Of a stretch of 64,000 nucleotides of DNA, positions 26,285 to 41,543 are shown one piece after another. Source of the stretch: a virus; the IMG/VR virus record IMGVR_UViG_3300031658_000004, positions 2,395 to 66,394 of that record; one strand, given 5' to 3'. Every line of letters begins with the position of its first letter. Position 1 is the first letter of the stretch. The notes beneath the pieces were generated by a model. It searched no databases. It had not been told where the DNA came from and saw only the letters and a list, made by a program, of their open reading frames with translations. A program made the translations under genes and the position numbers.

Positions 26285-27269
26285 TTATTATGTATTTAAG
26301 TATATTAAGTGAACCTCCTATACTAGAGACCAAATCAGATGGATCTTTCGATTCATACTCATCAGGGATATATACATTTACAAGATTAAACTCTTCACAG
26401 ATTTTACGTGCCATTGTTTGACCAGGATTATTAGGTTTATCATAATCATTGTCGTATAACACATATACTTCCTTAAATCTAGTTTGTAAGTCTTTTATTA
26501 ATTTTTTATCAGGATTCTGCATTTCGCTTTGAAGGGCGATTGCGTTATATCCTGCAGTATAAAGACACATAACATCTTTTAAAGAAGAGGTAAGGAATAC
26601 CATGTTCCCGGTATCAGGAAGTTGGTTTAGTCCTTGAATATCAGTAGATTTTACATTACTACTCCATTTAAACTTATCTCCAAAGGGAGAATAAATTTTG
26701 AAGCGATTGCCAAATTTATAGGCATAAGTAATTGATTTACAACTGAATCTGTTTCCGTTCACCCAGTAATGAGATATTGGTTCGACGTCAAAGATAACTA
26801 AAGTCTTCTTACTTATGAAGTATTTAGTCCAAAACTTTTCATCCTCTTGCGAAAACTGCCTACGTTTCTTTAGTATAAGAGTATGAGATTCTGTTATCTT
26901 AGGTTGTCGTTGCTTATATCCCATAGCACCCATTGTAAATGCTACTTCGGATGTTTGAGCATTGAGTTTTAAATTAAAGTCGCAATCTATAATGCGTAAA
27001 GCGGATGTAAAGTTACAAGAGAATTTATGTTGCACGTATCTGAAGCAGTTGAATGAATGATCTGAATGTCCAAAGTCTTTATATAACAACTTACCATTCC
27101 AGGCCACAATAGATGCAGTTGGTTTTCTATCAGGTCTTAACTCACTGCAGAAAGGTTTGTTTAGTTGTTTAAAGCTAGGGCAATAATACACAAAAATGTC
27201 ATACTCAGTAATTTTACTAAGTATGACATCTGTGTGTAAATAATCTTCACTGCCTCGAGCTTCTATCAT
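26220..27269 (-). CDS. DNA primase (TOPRIM)
   Basis: SELRPDRKPT..YKDFG N-terminal domain; TSSLKDVM, YDND, KDPSD. Confidence 0.85.
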   Translation of the reverse strand: MIEARGSEDYLHTDVILSKITEYDIFVYYCPSFKQLNKPFCSELRPDRKPTASIVAWNGKLLYKDFGHSDHSFNCFRYVQHKFSCNFTSALRIIDCDFNLKLNAQTSEVAFTMGAMGYKQRQPKITESHTLILKKRRQFSQEDEKFWTKYFISKKTLVIFDVEPISHYWVNGNRFSCKSITYAYKFGNRFKIYSPFGDKFKWSSNVKSTDIQGLNQLPDTGNMVFLTSSLKDVMCLYTAGYNAIALQSEMQNPDKKLIKDLQTRFKEVYVLYDNDYDKPNNPGQTMARKICEEFNLVNVYIPDEYESKDPSDLVSSIGGSLNILKYIINGQTRSDKVSTTETRISKERE

Positions 27270-35880: not shown

Positions 35881-36468
35881 TTATAGCATCATACTTGTAT
35901 CGAAATCTTCTACAGCTTCCATAGTCTCTGATGCAGCAAGAGTCTTAGAGTCTGGTTGTAAGAATGTATGAAGGTTATCTGTATCTTCATTAGTTTGAAT
36001 AACATCAGTATTACTAAAGATGTAATCTCCTTCACTTGTAATGAAATCTCCGTCTTTTCCTTTTCTCTTTGCAGATTGCTCAAGATTATCAGCTTGCCAT
36101 TCAGATGGCTCTGTAGTTTCTTCGATGATTACTCTGAATCTAGTTCCTTGATACTCTGGATTTAAGATATCTAACTCTAAAATTTCTCCTTTAGGAGTCA
36201 TTTCCCAGTCAGCATCATTACCAAAGTTTACTCCAAATACATCAGATGCATCAGCAGGCTCAGCAGTTAACCAACATCTTCTAGCACTTGAACTAAATCT
36301 TTCGTCTGATTTGTTAAGTAAGCCTAAAGCACTCATTGGTTTAGTTGTAGCACTAATGATTTCTGCAAATTCTAAATGTATCTTGTTGTTTTTCACTTTT
36401 CTAGCATTTACTAATAAAGTGTCTCCTTTTTTAAGTGCATCTATTGCACTCTTGTTGTTTTGTCCCAT
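35881..36468 (-). CDS. Putative single-stranded DNA-binding protein
   Basis: 195 aa, beta-rich, acidic C-terminal tail, just upstream of polA. Confidence 0.45.
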   Translation of the reverse strand: MGQNNKSAIDALKKGDTLLVNARKVKNNKIHLEFAEIISATTKPMSALGLLNKSDERFSSSARRCWLTAEPADASDVFGVNFGNDADWEMTPKGEILELDILNPEYQGTRFRVIIEETTEPSEWQADNLEQSAKRKGKDGDFITSEGDYIFSNTDVIQTNEDTDNLHTFLQPDSKTLAASETMEAVEDFDTSMML

Positions 36469-36496
36469 GTTGTTTAATTGTTTTTATGGATTATTT

Positions 36497-36530
36497 TTGA
36501 TGATTTAATAAAGGTATATCATCAACCTTT
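36497..36530 (-). promoter_or_regulatory. H-type pseudoknot in 5' leader
   Basis: AAAGGU/ACCUUU stem; loop UGAUGAU complementary to downstream AUCAUCA. Confidence 0.6.
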
Positions 36531-36718
36531 TATATTGTATCTTTGTGTAATACTATACTTATCTTATTATTTAGTATAAGTTTAATAAAGTCTAACATAT
36601 TCTTTCGAGAGCCTTTTGCTTTGCTTATCTCCCAGTCTATTAGGTTTGTTAATCTAAATAAGTTCTTTACACTCATATTTGTAGTACATATCTTTTTGTT
36701 ACGGATTTTAATGGTCAT
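36530..36718 (-). CDS. Hypothetical protein
   Basis: 62 aa basic ORF. Confidence 0.45.
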   Translation of the reverse strand: MTIKIRNKKICTTNMSVKNLFRLTNLIDWEISKAKGSRKNMLDFIKLILNNKISIVLHKDTI

Positions 36719-36737
36719 TTATTATGTAAGGTATTAG

Positions 36738-36807
36738 ATAATCCTCCTGAATGCGTCGAGTATTAGTCATCAGGCGCATGCCTTTCCGTCTTATATCGTG
36801 GGATTAT
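36738..36807 (-). ncRNA. Unclassified structured RNA element (motif copy 2)
   Basis: AUAAUCC/GGAUUAU closing stem; internal AGGC-AUGC-GCCU hairpin; AUGCG/CGCAU and CCUGA/UCAGG pairings; GC-richer than flanks. Confidence 0.5.
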
Positions 36808-36814
36808 TGTGTTA

Positions 36815-37093
36815 TTAATCGTGAGAGATACTGCTATTTGGGGATAAGTATAATGCTGCCTTACTTAAACCTGATAATAATGTAAGTTTAGTGTCATCAT
36901 TATCATCTAATGTACCATCAATGTATGTTATAGCAGTTTTAAGTGCTTTTATCATATTTTGAGTAGGTCGTTCGTTTAACTTCTCGGTGGCATCTATTAA
37001 GTCTGCTCCTATACTATCTAATTGTGCAGTTAACTTAGTTATTTCCAAGTTCTTTGCTAATATCTTACTGTTTAGTTCCGTAAATTCTGACAT
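36815..37093 (-). CDS. Coiled-coil hypothetical protein downstream of twister
   Basis: 92 aa, heptad pattern. Confidence 0.65.
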   Translation of the reverse strand: MSEFTELNSKILAKNLEITKLTAQLDSIGADLIDATEKLNERPTQNMIKALKTAITYIDGTLDDNDDTKLTLLSGLSKAALYLSPNSSISHD

Positions 37094-37120
37094 TTGTCTA
37101 ATTTTTAATTAATAAATTGT

Positions 37121-37176
37121 GTGCTCACTCTGCATTTCTCAACTAGGCTTGTGACCAGTATTGCTGCATTAAGCAC
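37121..37176 (-). ncRNA. Twister self-cleaving ribozyme (type P1)
   Basis: GUGCU-UAA-UGCA-GC-AAUA-CUGG-UCAC-AAGC-CUAG-UUGAGAAA-UGCA-GA-GUGA-GCAC: P1, P2, P4, T1 (UCAC/GUGA) and T2 (GC/GC) pseudoknots and conserved UAA/AAGC/GAG nucleotides all present. Confidence 0.9.
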
Positions 37177-37545
37177 GAGCTAGGGAGTTATCAACTCCAG
37201 AATTCAATCAATGGCCTTACGACCTTTACTCTCGACACATATTATAGAGTTCAACCTCTATTATCACATATTTCTATGCATTTAACACCCCACTACAGGA
37301 TATAATATATTACCTAAGCTCAATGACGTGAACTATTATGGCAATCTTGTGTCATAAAACAATAGATTTATTCTATTATTGTTTATGAATTCTTATCAGT
37401 TTCTATTGTTAAATAGATGAAACTACTCACATTTGTAAGTAATCCTACGACTAGATGTCTAACTAATACCGAGATACCATTGTTTCCACTGGTACTATAC
37501 TCGATTCTATCTCTAAGAGAGGCTTGCAAACCTCCCCTTGCTATC
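37177..37545 (-). ncRNA. Candidate large structured non-coding RNA (~370 nt)
   Basis: About ten consecutive hairpins with GNRA loops (GGAA, GAAA, GUAA), G-U pairs favouring the minus strand, long-range GAGCUUAGG/CCUAGCUC helix. Confidence 0.6.
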
Positions 37546-37743
37546 TTATTTGTAATATCTATCTGCAATATCTTTAGACTCTCCTATCTTTAAGTCTGTT
37601 ATACATTCAATTATCCTAACTGTGCTTGACTTGCTAAATCTTCTACTAAGTTTTTTAGCAATATCATCTAATTGAGTACCACTAGTTTGATTTGCTAATA
37701 TTTCTAAGGACTTAGCTATCCTTTTTGCTGTTGGTTCAGTCAT
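37546..37743 (-). CDS. Hypothetical early protein
   Basis: 65 aa ORF. Confidence 0.6.
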   Translation of the reverse strand: MTEPTAKRIAKSLEILANQTSGTQLDDIAKKLSRRFSKSSTVRIIECITDLKIGESKDIADRYYK

Positions 37744-37759
37744 CTCAATTATTTATTAA

Positions 37760-37972
37760 TTACCACCTATGCTGTATTTTAGGCACATCAAATACTAAAT
37801 GAGCATTATCATCCCAAGGTCTATTTGGGCATGATGTACTATCTTGTATTTGTGGTGTATCATATCTAGTTATATGTACATCTAACTCCTCTGATTCTAT
37901 AACATCAGAGAAGTTATCTTGTTTAAGATACATATCTGTCGATACTATCTTATCTTCATAATTATATCTCAT
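37760..37972 (-). CDS. Hypothetical early protein
   Basis: 70 aa ORF. Confidence 0.55.
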   Translation of the reverse strand: MRYNYEDKIVSTDMYLKQDNFSDVIESEELDVHITRYDTPQIQDSTSCPNRPWDDNAHLVFDVPKIQHRW

Positions 37973-38145
37973 GACTTAATTATATCTTTTAATACATCTA
38001 CTTGTGCTTGTAGTTTAGTGTTATTTGTTTCAAGATAGTGAACTAAGGCTTCTATTTTATATAGTAAGTCTTGAGGTACAACATAAAGATGCTCTCTATG
38101 TCTTATTATTTCTCGTTTTAATTGATTTCTTTCTAGTATATTCAT
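37969..38145 (-). CDS. 58-aa hypothetical early protein (not in ORF track)
   Basis: MNILERNQLKREIIRHREHL...; ATGA overlap with next gene. Confidence 0.6.
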   Translation of the reverse strand: MNILERNQLKREIIRHREHLYVVPQDLLYKIEALVHYLETNNTKLQAQVDVLKDIIKS

Positions 38146-38159
38146 CTCTTTATTTATGT

Positions 38160-38465
38160 TTAGGTAATGATTAGTTCTTTGTATAGTTTATTTATTCTTG
38201 TTTCTTCATCATCATTTAAACCCGCTGAATTCTCTTTAGTATGACTATCTTGAAATATACCTAATTGATTCGCATCATGTAAATGTTTGAGTAAACAGAT
38301 TATTGTTGTGTAATGATGATGACATATTTCAATTGATTTTGAATCACATCCATCAGCATTAGGAACATCACAACAAATAGCTTTAGCTAGTTTTGTTAAT
38401 GTTACTCTAGGGTCATCCCATTTTGCATCAAATCTTGTATTACGGTCTATGCTTTTTTTACTCAT
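38160..38465 (-). CDS. Hypothetical Cys/His-rich early protein
   Basis: 101 aa; CC..C..CHHH..C. Confidence 0.55.
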   Translation of the reverse strand: MSKKSIDRNTRFDAKWDDPRVTLTKLAKAICCDVPNADGCDSKSIEICHHHYTTIICLLKHLHDANQLGIFQDSHTKENSAGLNDDEETRINKLYKELIIT

Positions 38466-38726: not shown

Positions 38727-38752
38727 ATCTTTATTTAGTTTAATTAGGTTGT

Positions 38753-39018
38753 GTTGTTAATGGTGCTTTCAGATTACTCTTAATCACACCATCATCAACT
38801 ATTTGTTTAAAAATAACAGGTCAGCAGCTGTTTTATTGGTGTCACATTCCCATTATTGGGCACCACTACTGTTCGACACCAACTCTAGATGGTTATCACT
38901 AACCGTTGGGCTTATTGTTACACCTGTTATTATGTTATGTGGTTATATAACAACTCTACCGTTACCTTTAGCATAAAGCATAATCAGTAATCATTTATCA
39001 ATAGATGTTGTTATATAA
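38753..39018 (-). ncRNA. Three tandem structured RNA domains
   Basis: Stems TTATATAACAAC/GTTGTTATATAA, AATAACAGGT/ACCTGTTATT (multibranch) and GTTGATGATGGTG/CACCATTAACAAC fill a gap with no listed ORF. Confidence 0.5.
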
Positions 39019-39024
39019 GTGTTA

Positions 39025-39706: not shown

Positions 39707-39835
39707 AATTCTCTAATTTTTATAATTAAAACTGGTTGGGGACATCCCAACTCTAAAGAACAATGGGGGTTTAGTTTTGAGGAGGTTCACACGTTCAGAA
39801 ACAAATCTTAAAATTTTTCCCCCTTTTATTTTTTT

Positions 39836-39858
39836 ATTGGTTATTTTTTATATCTTTG
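39836..39858 (+). promoter_or_regulatory. Bacteroidota sigma70 promoter at strand switch
   Basis: TATCTTTG (-7 element) with upstream TTG. Confidence 0.7.
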
Positions 39859-39861
39859 CAG

Positions 39862-40115
39862 TCCAATATTATCGTCCCTTGGTAACCAAAAATGGGACTA
39901 GACATCGGATTTCGAACTCTAAATAAGAGGGAAATTTTCTCCGGTAATTGGAAAAAGAGTAAGATATAAACTCTGATTTGGATAGAATGCACACAGGTAC
40001 GTGCGGTGAATTAACATCAAGATCACTATCCATGGGTCCCCCCTGAAAAGAGGAGCACTGTCAGAAGGAAATTCACACTTGAAACTAAAGCCACAAGGGG
40101 GTGAACTATATCCAA
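39862..40115 (+). ncRNA. Candidate structured RNA / long leader
   Basis: ~250 nt without a listed ORF, multiple hairpins, directly after promoter. Confidence 0.45.
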
Positions 40116-40124
40116 TTTAGAAAT

Positions 40125-40313
40125 ATGACAAAGTATAGATGTACTTGTAAAGAAACAAGAGAACTTAATAAGATGACGATGGTAGTTATTGATGATAAGG
40201 TAAGGATTAAAGAAGCCTTATGTAAGTGTGGAGAATATATGGAGGAAGTTAACCAGGAGTTTGGAGGTTTCCCATCACTAATTCGAACCGAACCTACATT
40301 AAGTAAAAAATAA
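40125..40313 (+). CDS. Small zinc-ribbon protein
   Basis: YRCTC...CKCGEYM; ATG at 40125 preferred to GTG 40101. Confidence 0.6.
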   Translation: MTKYRCTCKETRELNKMTMVVIDDKVRIKEALCKCGEYMEEVNQEFGGFPSLIRTEPTLSKK

Positions 40314-40324
40314 ATCTAAAAAGA

Positions 40325-40357
40325 TTTGGTATTATAAAGGAATTATTTATATATTTG
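40325..40357 (+). promoter_or_regulatory. Bacteroidota sigma70 promoter
   Basis: TTTG ... TATATTTG upstream of groES. Confidence 0.75.
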
Positions 40358-40379
40358 CACCAACTAAAATATATATATA

Positions 40380-40649
40380 ATGAAATTTACACCAAACAAT
40401 CATTGGGTAGTCCTTCCAGACCCAACAATCACAGAAACAGAGTCAGGAATCATCTTAGATGAAGCTACTTCTATTCAGAACGCTAAACGTTCGAATATAT
40501 TAGAGGTTTTAGCAGTAGGTCCAGCATGCACATTCTGCAAAGTTGGGGATACGGTTATGATAGACCCTAGAACAGAAGCTGTAAAATGTAGGATAGATGA
40601 TACAGATATGCTATTAGTTGGGGAACACCAATTATTAGGTAAGTGGTAA
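40380..40649 (+). CDS. groES: GroES-like co-chaperonin
   Basis: P..HWVV, ETESGIIL mobile loop, VLAVGP, KVGDTV. Confidence 0.85.
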   Translation: MKFTPNNHWVVLPDPTITETESGIILDEATSIQNAKRSNILEVLAVGPACTFCKVGDTVMIDPRTEAVKCRIDDTDMLLVGEHQLLGKW

Positions 40650-40897
40650 GTGGTACTGTCACTATAACTATAGAAGATTATCATGCTTTTATAGATCAAG
40701 CTATAGACGTTAAAGAGAAAGAGGGTAAGTTAACCTTAGCCGCTAAAGAACTGCAAGTATTCTTATCATTTATCTGTGATCAGGTAGATATGACTAAGCA
40801 TATAGAGTCTTTTAACAAACAATCTACAAGATCATCTATAGAATTTATTAATGGGAGGGCTCAAATCAAATTCAAAGGTGATAAGACTACTAAATAA
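40643..40897 (+). CDS. Hypothetical protein
   Basis: 84 aa, GTG start overlapping groES. Confidence 0.6.
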   Translation: MVSGTVTITIEDYHAFIDQAIDVKEKEGKLTLAAKELQVFLSFICDQVDMTKHIESFNKQSTRSSIEFINGRAQIKFKGDKTTK

Positions 40898-41021
40898 ATT
40901 ACTATACATAAAACATAGGTTAGGATTCCATAATAAAAAGTGTAGAAGGCGTATATTCACTACGGAACAGGATTATCTATGTTTAAGGACTGGAAATTCA
41001 CATAAAAAATTTACATTATGA
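40878..41021 (+). CDS. 47-aa basic His/Cys protein (not in ORF track)
   Basis: GTG start; HRLGFHNKKC...YLCLRTG; ATGA overlap with next ORF. Confidence 0.45.
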   Translation: MIRLLNKLLYIKHRLGFHNKKCRRRIFTTEQDYLCLRTGNSHKKFTL

Positions 41022-41245
41022 CCTATTTACAACATTTAAAGAAGACAGACAATTGTGTAGACATACGTTGGATTGTTAAATACACTAAGAAAGGTAGAGT
41101 AAGAGAAGTAAAACAAATATATAAACCATCAGAGTATTATGCTATGAACTTACATAGAGGTAAAAATGCAAGACCTTTACATAACAAGAATGCCCTGATT
41201 AAAATTTTAGAAGATGAAAAAGAAAAGAGTAACCATAAAAGCTAA
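41018..41245 (+). CDS. Hypothetical basic protein
   Basis: 75 aa ORF. Confidence 0.55.
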   Translation: MTYLQHLKKTDNCVDIRWIVKYTKKGRVREVKQIYKPSEYYAMNLHRGKNARPLHNKNALIKILEDEKEKSNHKS

Positions 41246-41543
41246 TACTACTTATAAGTATCTACAGTTATGGAATGGTATATTCAATTTAACTGAAAAG
41301 GAGCTAACGATCTTATCGTGCTTTATAGATGTTAGGAATACTTTAAACGTGTCTAGCCTCTGTGGTATAGATAATAAGAAAGAAGTAGCTAAGCTATTAA
41401 ACATTAAAGACCCTAATACATTGAATAACTATGTAAAGAGGTTTAAAGATAAAGGTGTTATTATAAAATCGGAGAACATATACCTGTTATCACATGTATT
41501 AGAACCTGAAACAGAACAAATAATAATAAACATTAATAAATAA
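41214..41543 (+). CDS. Winged-HTH DNA-binding protein
   Basis: LTEKELTIL...KKEVAKLLNI..NTLNNYVKRFKDKGVI. Confidence 0.7.
   Translation: MKKKRVTIKANTTYKYLQLWNGIFNLTEKELTILSCFIDVRNTLNVSSLCGIDNKKEVAKLLNIKDPNTLNNYVKRFKDKGVIIKSENIYLLSHVLEPETEQIIININK

Follow-up and report, generated by a model that had tools for sequence, protein, structure and literature searches.

The minus strand of the window, the 64,000-nt stretch of virus record IMGVR_UViG_3300031658_000004 analysed here, carries at about 37544-37171 a non-coding multi-domain RNA with a P3-less type-P1 twister ribozyme (37176-37121) directly on its 3' side. A large structured RNA adjoining a twister on this strand had been proposed in a preliminary description of the DNA, and single-sequence folding, Rfam scans and the comparison of 39 homologues agree that it is real and beyond chance. 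We consider it probable that the element represents an uncatalogued family of large folded ncRNAs, which forms one module with a cis-acting twister and belongs to the early/replication operon of an uncultured marine clade of crAss-like phages. The predicted RNA is as follows:

37171-37544, minus strand: predicted mature ncRNA, ~375-385 nt, with its 3' end at U37171 and an approximate 5' boundary (37544-37553)

Among the 39 homologues, conservation is 0.60 in columns 1-9, climbs to 0.82-0.87 within the element and drops to 0.70 past the twister.

The fold of 37110-37548 on the minus strand has a free energy of -122.4 kcal/mol, compared with -94.98 ± 5.77 kcal/mol for 100 dinucleotide shuffles. 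In this comparison, which the preliminary description had named as a check, z is -4.75 and none of the 100 shuffles folds as well. The plus strand gives a z of -0.13, with 42 of 100 shuffles as good, and within the element's pairs, read on the minus strand across the 39 homologues, G-U cells outnumber A-C cells by 569 to 19; for both of these reasons the RNA is read on the minus strand. A further region, 39720-40140 of the minus strand, gives no structure signal (z -0.99). The RNA had been described as unlike tRNA, tmRNA, RNase P or an intron, and this holds, as ARAGORN finds no tRNA or tmRNA genes in the 64-kb window, and Rfam matches the twister only, with no accepted match to another family at gathering level, at E ≤10 locally or at E ≤0.1 over the whole window. 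One match to mir-3327 at 27175-27253, scoring 33 bits where the cut-off is 85 and with an E of 0.033, was taken as chance. A blastn search of the element against 50,697 phage records gave no match, and the RNA is not described in the literature that we searched on twisters and crAss-like phages, phage structured RNAs, marine metatranscriptomes and surveys of viral structured RNAs. One such survey reports more than 10,000 candidate viral structured RNAs from IMG/VR (PMC10690425); its main text does not mention twisters or ribozymes, and its supplementary tables may still list the element.

The alignment comprises 39 distinct full-length marine homologues, all from one phage clade. The curated model has 140 pairs in 25 helices and three pseudoknots, and 98.2% of its 5356 cells are paired across the 39 homologues, compared with 32-42% in a control in which the partners were slid by 1-3 columns. 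Compensatory changes, in which both sides are altered, are present in 85 of the 140 pairs, although many of these are inherited rather than independent because the homologues all come from one clade. None of 500 shuffles reaches the observed value on any of five measures. The features of the large RNA are listed here in 5' to 3' order:

37517-37535, minus strand: Ha, 5' hairpin outside the closing helix; 5 pairs, 100% paired, 4 compensatory
37507-37513 with 37177-37183, minus strand: Hb, global closing helix; 7 pairs, 99.3% paired, 4 compensatory
37469-37504, minus strand: Hc/Hd, hairpin with an asymmetric internal loop; compensatory in 5 of 5 (Hc) and 3 of 7 (Hd) pairs
37394-37468, minus strand: He, cloverleaf-shaped four-way junction, with its stem at 37461-37468/37394-37401; 6 of 8 compensatory
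37449-37459, minus strand: Hf, hairpin in He; 2 of 3 compensatory
37420-37444, minus strand: Hg, hairpin in He; 9 of 10 compensatory
37402-37417, minus strand: Hh, hairpin in He; 4 of 6 compensatory
37386-37393 with 37199-37206, minus strand: Hi, which closes the large 3' domain; 8 pairs, 93.9% paired, 6 compensatory
37358-37380, minus strand: Hj, hairpin whose A-rich loop varies in length; outside the counted consensus structure
37233-37354, minus strand: core domain, enclosed by Hk (37348-37354/37233-37239); 3 of 7 compensatory in Hk
37340-37345/37309-37314, minus strand: Hl, in Hk; 4 of 6 compensatory
37318-37333, minus strand: Hm, hairpin in Hl; 3 of 5 compensatory
37304-37307/37240-37243, minus strand: Hn, junction in Hk; 2 of 4 compensatory
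37285-37303, minus strand: Ho, hairpin in Hn; 3 of 8 compensatory
37262-37284, minus strand: Hp, hairpin in Hn; 5 of 11 compensatory
37244-37261, minus strand: Hq, hairpin in Hn; 4 of 7 compensatory
37212-37225, minus strand: Hr, hairpin with a GUAA loop in the window; 3 of 5 compensatory
37207-37209 with the Hm loop (37325-37327), minus strand: PK1, pseudoknot; 3 pairs, 100% paired in 39 of 39, 2 of 3 compensatory
37184-37198, minus strand: Hs, hairpin; 4 of 4 compensatory

Covariation supports an architecture in which five helices radiate from one junction, one subdomain is shaped like a cloverleaf, the core forms a large domain and one pseudoknot is long-range. The 3' strand of Hb (37177-37183) runs into twister P1 with zero spacer. 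The apical part of Hc/Hd contains invariant G, C, A and A residues, with a GAAA loop in the window; the register of three apical pairs is ambiguous. In Hj the sequence and position of the 5' strand vary but the 3' strand is conserved, and single-sequence folds of 28 distinct versions give in most of them a hairpin that uses the conserved 3' strand. The core domain is followed by a near-invariant unpaired UCGAGA. Relatives have a 20-nt extension in Hp, and four of them (L035, L038, L209, L228) have an insertion of ~40 nt in Hl. Two features were dropped from the model, an RNAalifold helix (columns 197-200/392-395, 86.5% paired) and a single pair (226/269, 74.4% paired), each with zero compensatory change, and other candidates for tertiary pairing, such as columns 55-57 with 369-371, overlap with helices that are supported.

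The local helices of the preliminary description correspond well to this model. Covariation in the 39 homologues supports the 5' hairpin at 37535-37517, AUCGAG/CUCGGU with its inner hairpin (37504-37469), GAUUACUUAC/GUGAGUAGUU (37444-37420), UGCAUA-GAAA-UAUGUG (37284-37262), AUAGAG/CUCUAU (37261-37244), GGUC-GUAA-GGCC (37225-37212) and GGAGUU/AACUCC (37198-37184). The long-range helices AGAUAGA/UCUAUUU and GAGCUUAGG/CCUAGCUC were not sustained, being paired in only 50.9% and 66.1%, respectively, across homologues. A closing helix does abut twister P1 as proposed, although its strands are not the ones originally named, and covariation instead pairs 37513-37507 with 37183-37177.

The ribozyme itself has the following components:

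37121-37176, minus strand: type-P1 twister without P3; RF03160, 40.3 bits
37172-37176/37121-37125, minus strand: P1; 96.4% paired, 1 of 5 compensatory
37165-37168/37131-37134, minus strand: P2; 100% paired, 4 of 4 compensatory
37143-37158, minus strand: P4; 100% paired, 2 of 4 compensatory
37151-37153 with 37126-37128, minus strand: T1 pseudoknot; C-G, A-U and C-G in 39 of 39
37163-37164 with 37147-37148, minus strand: T2 pseudoknot; G-C in 37 of 39 and A-U in 2 of 39, then C-G in 38 of 39

RF03160 matches 37122-37175 on the minus strand with an E of 4.7e-7 in a 1.3-kb scan and 2.3e-5 in the whole window, and the alignment spans model positions 1-68. The score of 40.3 bits is below the Rfam gathering score of 67.2 because the optional P3 is missing and because the model cannot credit the pseudoknot changes; the gathering threshold is a database rule and not a property of the ribozyme itself. 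P3 is described as optional, and there is a crystal structure of a P3-less twister (PMC5408937); Osa-1-4 of Oryza sativa is a minimal form without P3 and P5, like the twister here. The essential stems P1, P2 and P4 are in the consensus order and both pseudoknots are present, T1 joining L4 with L1 and T2 joining L4 with L2 as described for twisters (PMC5408937). The two deviations from the Rfam consensus, C to A in L4 and G to U in L1, are partners in T1, such that its middle pair is A-U rather than the C-G of the consensus. The conserved L1/L4 residues (UAA, GC, GGUC.CAAGCC, AAA and GAG.G) and the U-A cleavage dinucleotide are all present, and their columns are invariant in the 39 sequences. 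From these features the twister appears to be intact and is predicted to be able to cut between U37171 and A37170. The cut site suggested previously, after 37171, agrees with this predicted scissile bond in the Rfam alignment, and the twister is placed, as had been proposed, such that its predicted cleavage would make the 3' end of the large RNA.

Relative to the type-P1 twister (RF03160; Roth et al. 2014, reviewed in PMC5408937), the P1/P2/P4 stems, pseudoknots, U-A dinucleotide and L1/L4 residues are the same, and one difference lies in the helix 5' of P1, which closes a ~370-nt multi-domain RNA here and is a small hairpin there. A stem P0 is listed among the optional stems of twisters (PMC5408937). 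Stand-alone twisters of this subtype in other viral contigs were collected from the matches listed in a search with a loose pattern, which gives many chance matches, and in 14 of 16 a stable hairpin ends 0-3 nt before P1. Such a hairpin 5' of P1 is presumably P0, and in the element the closing helix takes its place. In the arrangement of hairpin, twister and gene that punctuates phage operons, the twister subtype and its position between early genes are as in the element, and the same chemistry would be expected of both, with an upstream piece ending in a helix and a cyclic phosphate and a downstream piece beginning with a 5'-OH. In the element, however, a conserved RNA that has ~20 helices as well as tertiary pairings stands in for that hairpin, and this implies that the RNA has its own function.

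Contigs from relatives (90-97% alike) in the RNA libraries of four studies, labelled as marine, cover 37173-37517, although these are assembled contigs rather than reads, from which ends, strand and level are not readable and in which DNA may be present; likewise, contig depths cannot rank parts of the element. One contig of 383 nt (X7) spans 37173 to ~37553, and both it and a 193-nt contig (X12) from a second study stop at 37173, 2 nt from the predicted cut and with no loose ends. This is a weak hint of cleavage. Two twister variants diverge 3-4 nt past this stop, so a branch in the assembly graph is possible and could also end contigs. Positions 37159-37172 have no contig cover, and the flanking ORFs have only pieces of <40 nt (36501-36537 and 37853-37888), although missing cover of the flanks carries no evidence because the flanks of relatives are too diverged for placement.

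Searching with a pattern that lies in the core domain and does not depend on the twister yielded 16 viral and 46 metagenome stretches. RNA and twister behave as the single module that had been suggested, with both present in all 39 full-length distinct homologues, and in relatives without the RNA the twister is likewise missing. The pair is absent from 185,579 prokaryote genomes; it is carried by marine DNA contigs, TARA Oceans contigs among them. In 41 of 41 loci the element is directly upstream of replication genes, and it is confined to one marine clade in which its presence is patchy. Of the 31 relatives defined by their polymerase for which at least 1.8 kb is available upstream of the gene for a 195-aa protein, just 3 have it; two at 78% polymerase identity (L005, L010) do not, and one at 61% (L026) does. 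A covariance model of the 5' domain recovered only the 8 known copies in 824,455 bases. The RNA is accessory.

The closest isolates reach only 26-33% polymerase identity, and crAss-like phages (cr108_1, cr111_1, IAS virus) make up several of the best. The genes upstream of the element come from at least four unrelated families (F7, F10, F14, F18) while the RNA is unchanged. The stop of the upstream ORF lies ~10 nt or less from the conserved block; co-transcription is therefore likely, and the RNA could remain joined to the upstream message. The small flanking ORFs (92 aa and 65 aa) have no relatives in viral contigs, and ten neighbouring small ORFs match no Pfam or PHROG family. For the 195-aa protein family there is no PHROG family (one of its 32 members reached E 0.009), and neither a PDB sequence match nor a protein-atlas match was found. 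Sigma-70-like promoters in 36400-38300 are at chance level (11 found, 11.5 expected), and neither terminator-like site in this interval is on the minus strand.

The 5' hairpin Ha has an 8-nt loop with a 6-nt palindrome at 37524-37529, UUGCAA in the window. The loop has UUGCAA in 33 of 39 homologues and UUCGAA in the other 6, and is never non-palindromic; the GC/CG switch at these adjacent positions occurs at least three times on the tree. The same signature supported the symmetric kissing loops of GOLLD L21a and OLE L9.3 (bioRxiv 10.1101/2024.12.08.627333), and by analogy two copies of the Ha loop may kiss symmetrically and so join the RNA into at least a homodimer. Alternatively, the palindrome could be a site for protein or one that acts at the DNA level, or a T-loop-like motif.

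GOLLD, ROOL and OLE are large ornate bacterial and phage ncRNAs that form RNA-only homo-oligomers through symmetric kissing loops and A-minor contacts (bioRxiv 10.1101/2024.12.08.627333). As with these, the element is large, highly branched, covariation-supported and phage-encoded, and has a self-complementary hairpin loop with GC/CG switching. It differs in several respects. At ~380 nt it is smaller than GOLLD, which is often >800 nt, and whereas GOLLD and ROOL are frequently near phage tRNA islands (bioRxiv 10.1101/2024.12.08.627333), it is not near tRNA genes, with none in 64 kb. The element matches none of their Rfam models, its 3' end is predicted to be ribozyme-defined, and its oligomerisation is only inferred. 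ROOL and OLE are also larger than ~380 nt.

The preliminary description drew a parallel with theta ribozymes, which are minimal HDV-like ribozymes that adjoin tRNAs of gut phages (PMC10879173). The logic is shared, in that a ribozyme is fused to a phage ncRNA and cleavage sets an end of the RNA, but the analogy goes no further: the ribozyme is a twister here and HDV-like there, the cargo is a ~370-nt novel RNA here and a tRNA there, and no link to recoding is seen here. HDV-like ribozymes cut at their own 5' edge and the twister near its 5' edge, and both free the 3' end of the upstream RNA.

In the mechanism that we propose, the element would be transcribed from the minus strand together with its neighbours, and the twister, which is intact and covarying, would fold and cut between U37171 and A37170. 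Cleavage would free an RNA of ~380 nt with a 2',3'-cyclic phosphate at its 3' end, whose last helix lies where ordinary phage twisters have their 5' hairpin, and the downstream message (small early genes, the conserved 195-aa protein and DNA polymerase) would begin with a twister bearing a 5'-OH. The freed RNA would be a folded, stable, trans-acting molecule, in which the 6-nt self-complementary loop of the 5' hairpin would presumably give at least a kissing-loop homodimer. Circularisation by RtcB-type ligation, which had been raised as a possibility, finds no support, as Rfam scans, both local and of the window, revealed no second ribozyme able to give a 5'-OH, and no RtcB is among the 30 window ORFs scanned against Pfam.

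That the RNA functions in trans is a guess, and so are the decoy and scaffold roles raised in the preliminary description. Given that it is an accessory RNA among fast-shuffling early genes, our best guess is that it serves in host takeover or counter-defence, or that it builds an RNA-only assembly like those of GOLLD, ROOL and OLE. A fuller version, which we consider less likely than not, is that the twister is the maturation device of a new class of phage RNA machine, with the RNA forming, through its palindromic 5' loop, a defined RNA-only dimer or larger particle, or being itself catalytic or ligand-binding, and acting early in infection on a host target. A particle would be a small cousin of the GOLLD and ROOL cages, and the action would be, for example, that of a decoy for RNA-sensing defence or of a sequestering scaffold.

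An unlikely alternative is that the element acts purely in cis on mRNA, as an overgrown version of the pre-twister hairpin that, after cleavage, either caps and stabilises the 3' end of the upstream message or is the discarded leader of the replication-gene message, with no function as a free RNA. Its closing helix does sit where 14 of the 16 stand-alone twisters, among the matches listed, have a simple hairpin, the upstream ORF ends within ~10 nt such that co-transcription is likely, and the 5' boundary of the RNA is only approximate. However, a 7-bp hairpin suffices elsewhere, whereas here ~370 nt are kept, in which ~20 helices covary, one pseudoknot is long-range and many of the unpaired residues are invariant. 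The RNA also stays constant across loci whose upstream genes fall into at least four families that are unrelated, and its palindromic loop is kept through GC/CG switches, for which an end cap has no use.

We regard as improbable a regulated ribozyme, in which the large RNA is a sensor of a ligand, protein, temperature or RNA that switches the twister and thereby controls the intact replication-gene message. The closing helix and twister P1 form a continuous stack, the module is directly upstream of replication genes in all 41 loci, and the near-invariant junction residues could form a binding pocket. But the connection is through P1, which is reported to be dispensable for efficient cleavage (PMC5408937), so coupling would be weak, and this also counts against the earlier suggestion that folding of the large RNA gates cleavage. 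The candidates of the covariation screen include no alternative, covarying pairing that would link the large RNA to the twister core. The domain also greatly exceeds known aptamers in size.

We think it very unlikely that the element is a self-splicing intron or a relic of a mobile RNA inserted between two gene halves, even though ~370 nt and a complex fold are within the range of group I introns and the patchy presence among close relatives is mobile-element-like. There is no Rfam intron match even at E ≤10, and the flanking ORFs are complete, unrelated and different between loci, which leaves nothing to be joined as exons. Genes for a homing endonuclease or a reverse transcriptase are missing from the interior, as is any ORF in 39 of the 41 loci, and a global closing helix with fully nested domains is unlike the group I layout.

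The non-coding assignment made initially had ORF 37383-37568 as its potential exception, and this frame lacks conservation. When the stop that ends it in the window itself is counted, 38 of 39 homologues are interrupted by one or more stops in all frames of the homologous stretch. The longest run free of stops, whichever of the six frames it falls in, has a median length of 52 codons, and no ATG-started ORF of at least 45 aa is inside the element in 39 of 41 loci. Although a 61-codon TTG-started frame is open in the window, the broken frames, the short stop-free runs and the compensatory nature of the stem substitutions leave a negligible chance that this ORF or another small one is coding and the structure incidental.

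The biological roles of twister ribozymes are said to "remain largely speculative" (PMC5408937). Twisters are widespread, and here the predicted cut has an obvious product, a conserved and elaborate RNA, which makes the role of a ribozyme as the maker of an ncRNA 3' end directly testable. The RNA matches no family in Rfam and extends the short list of ornate large RNAs in phages, and at ~380 nt it is small enough for cryo-EM, chemical probing and mutational tests of the predicted kissing-loop dimer. Its accessory nature and its position in an early operon make a role in host takeover or counter-defence worth testing. If the twister is indeed the maturation device of a phage RNA machine, it would be the first bacterial or phage twister with a demonstrated biological purpose.

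The stretch from about 37544 to 37171 on the minus strand and the twister-P1 ribozyme that follows it (37176-37121) constitute a new covarying RNA fold, non-coding and always fused to an intact-looking twister, and form an accessory module of a marine phage clade that is also present in RNA libraries. The source record is an uncultured viral contig of 66.4 kb, of which the window covers 64 kb. Its layout is crAss-like, with some giant ORFs (2273, 1637 and more than 2834 aa). A leftward replication module encodes a DnaB-like helicase, an SF2 helicase, an AAA_24 ATPase, DUF2201, a 5'-3' exonuclease and a family-A DNA polymerase, and a P22-like portal belongs to a rightward structural module. The closest isolates share just 26-33% polymerase identity, and several of the best of them are crAss-like. 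The element lies on the minus strand amid small early ORFs, with a conserved 195-aa gene about 640 nt downstream and the polymerase gene 1.5 kb downstream.

The proposal in the preliminary description that this region specifies a structured RNA is supported by shuffling, as 37110-37548 on the minus strand has a fold z of -4.75 and none of 100 shuffles is as good; the opposite (plus) strand gives only -0.13. There is no Rfam match at gathering level in the whole window, but a permissive scan yields a full-length twister-P1 match at 37122-37175 (minus strand), with 40.3 bits against a cut-off of 67.2 (E = 4.7e-7 in a local scan, 2.3e-5 window-wide), as the sole ribozyme-like match. Beyond the twister the element matches no Rfam family, and ARAGORN detects neither a tRNA nor a tmRNA, as had been anticipated. 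We found no published description of it in the literature; an IMG/VR structured-RNA survey may list it in its supplements.

Flanking small ORFs used as queries gave no relatives, and comparing the element with 50,697 phage records produced no match either. Among 80 polymerase-related loci, taken from 305 matches, nhmmer located the entire element in seven and part of it in three. A second query, a 39-position degenerate pattern from the core domain and clear of the twister, matched 16 stretches in viral contigs and 46 in metagenomic contigs, many of which come from TARA Oceans, with no match in 185,579 prokaryote species genomes. Removal of duplicates left 41 distinct sequences, of which 39 were aligned; loci L229 and L216, whose 5' ends are cut, were excluded. 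RNAalifold and hand curation then gave a model of 140 pairs in 25 helices, with the following main features.

Main helices of the consensus structure (window positions)
37535-37517, minus strand: Ha, a hairpin outside the closing helix
37513-37507 with 37183-37177, minus strand: Hb, the closing helix, 99.3% paired
37504-37469, minus strand: Hc/Hd, an arm of the Hb junction
37468-37394, minus strand: He-Hf-Hg-Hh, a cloverleaf-shaped arm of the Hb junction
37393-37386 with 37206-37199, minus strand: Hi, closing a large domain, an arm of the Hb junction
37198-37184, minus strand: Hs, a hairpin arm of the Hb junction

Hb closes a five-way junction that has hardly any linker residues; Hc/Hd, He-Hf-Hg-Hh, the Hi-closed domain and Hs emanate from it. 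The Hi domain contains, 5' to 3', an A-rich variable hairpin (Hj), Hk, a near-invariant unpaired UCGAGA and the hairpin Hr, and Hk encloses Hl/Hm and a three-hairpin junction, Hn (Ho, Hp, Hq). A covariation screen of the unpaired columns also revealed that the Hm loop (37327-37325) pairs with 37209-37207 in a long-range pseudoknot, which is formed in all 39 sequences and has compensatory changes in two of its three pairs. Seven of the hairpins previously drawn from the single sequence are correct in this comparative structure, whereas the two long-range closing helices proposed with them do not hold, being paired in 50.9% and 66.1% across homologues compared with 99.3% for Hb. In four loci (L035, L038, L209 and L228) Hl carries an extra hairpin-forming insertion of ~40 nt (alignment A2, columns 227-265), and in most relatives Hp has a 20-nt extension that is absent from the window copy; both are expansion sites that the fold tolerates.

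Standard pairs occupy 98.2% of 5356 cells, which are non-independent events because the homologues all come from one phage clade, compared with 32-42% when the partners are slid by 1-3 columns. Both-sided changes are seen in 85 pairs, six sub-groups of homologues show differences at most stems, and none of 500 column shuffles matched the observed value on any of five measures. The excess of G-U over A-C cells within pairs (569 versus 19) fixes the transcribed strand as minus. No ATG-started ORF of at least 45 aa is present inside the element in 39 of the 41 loci, and in 38 of 39 sequences no frame is free of stops across the stretch homologous to ORF 37383-37568, consistent with the non-coding character proposed at the outset.

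According to a review (PMC5408937), twister stems P1, P2 and P4 are essential and P0, P3 and P5 optional, P1 is dispensable for cleavage, a twister without P3 has been crystallised, and two pseudoknots join L4 with L1 (T1) and L4 with the GC of L2 (T2). All of the essential parts are present here, with covariation in P1, P2, P4 and T2. Two positions deviate from the Rfam consensus, L4 having A in place of C and L1 having U in place of G; they lie opposite one another in T1 and thus form a compensated pair, and the low bit score is explained by this pair together with the absence of P3. The cut site is predicted to lie between U37171 and A37170.

The twister is present in all 39 full-length sequences, even though their retrieval made no use of it, and relatives without the RNA are also without the twister. 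The same subtype stands alone in many unrelated viral contigs, and in 14 of 16 such copies examined with a crude fold-based measure P1 is preceded, at a distance of 0-3 nt, by a stable hairpin. Here the closing helix Hb fills that position. In formal terms, the 370-nt RNA is a hugely expanded form of the P1-flanking 5' helix, which we take to be stem P0 of the twister nomenclature. Stand-alone P3-less twisters with an A-U pair in T1 were seen at loci L082, L085, L099, L102, L103, L105, L106, L111, L114, L115, L137, L152, L186, L192, L194 and others, nearly always immediately 3' of a stable hairpin and 5' of a gene; by analogy, these would all score under the Rfam cut-off.

In all 41 loci the 195-aa gene and the polymerase gene follow the module, with zero to four small ORFs of shuffling families intervening, and the ORFs upstream of it belong to unrelated families between loci. 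Of the relatives defined by their polymerase, 31 have at least 1.8 kb of available sequence before the 195-aa gene, and only three of these contain the module; a covariance model (R1) built for the 5' domain and applied to 81 sources (824,455 bases) recovered the eight known copies and no others. The RNA is missing from L005 and L010 (78% polymerase identity) and present in L026 (61%), indicating an accessory module.

Several further features of the locus were noted. In almost every relative, RNA-bearing or not, the gene for the conserved 195-aa protein family (35881-36468, minus strand) directly precedes that for the DNA polymerase, and searches of Pfam, PHROG, PDB sequences and the protein atlas gave no match to the family. 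Within the 70 nt upstream of the element in homologous loci, several (e.g. L235, L215, L228 and L230) show by eye a G+C-rich inverted repeat and then a T-run, 10-25 nt ahead of the conserved 5' block, with an A/T-rich stretch coming next; such an arrangement would be compatible with a terminator upstream and an independent start of the RNA. Another conserved, structured non-coding element lies in the same leftward operon, at 38727-39024 on the minus strand (core about 38790-38945); its fold z is -4.45 and it has no Rfam match. The program nhmmer matches it in 14 loci, some without the twister-capped RNA, and a 10-sequence alignment has a closing helix and compensatory changes in 3 of 23 pairs. 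Stretches in 39784-41432 with 68-78% DNA identity to relatives overlap small plus-strand ORFs, and probably represent the opening genes of the divergent rightward module instead of RNA elements.

The 8-nt loop of Ha has a central 6-nt palindrome, UUGCAA in 33 of 39 sequences and UUCGAA in the other six. The GC/CG switch occurred at least three times on a tree built without Ha, and the loop positions flanking the palindrome are never Watson-Crick pairs. Neighbouring nucleotides within one loop are unable to pair with each other. The same GC/CG signature is taken as support for symmetric intermolecular kissing loops in a cryo-EM study of GOLLD, ROOL and OLE (bioRxiv 10.1101/2024.12.08.627333). 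With this precedent, the switching palindrome and the impossibility of pairing within the loop suggest, with moderate confidence, that the Ha loop makes a homodimer contact.

Seven of 24 listed runs are RNA libraries with about 9-10% of the sampled words, and four of these, from four studies, were compared at 80% likeness; the comparison covered RNA libraries only, and the records are assembled contigs in which DNA may be present. The relatives' contigs that map to 37173-37517 are 111-383 nt long and 90-97% alike. One of these, X7 (383 nt), extends from 37173 to 37516 plus 37 nt beyond, which read as a variant Ha hairpin with an identical loop. Both X7 and X12 (193 nt, from another study) end at 37173, short of the predicted cut by 2 nt and free of loose ends. 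These stops are a weak hint of cleavage, and could instead reflect a fork in the assembly where two twister variants diverge, 3-4 nt beyond.

Cleavage by the twister would release an RNA of ~380 nt that terminates in a helix and carries a cyclic phosphate at its end. Circularisation of this RNA, as raised in the preliminary description, is not favored, as no 5' ribozyme was found with Rfam either locally or window-wide, and the idea that folding gates cleavage is unlikely because the large RNA connects through the dispensable P1. The released RNA should be stable and act in trans, and it may dimerise; we would guess at a role in host takeover, in counter-defence or as a scaffold.
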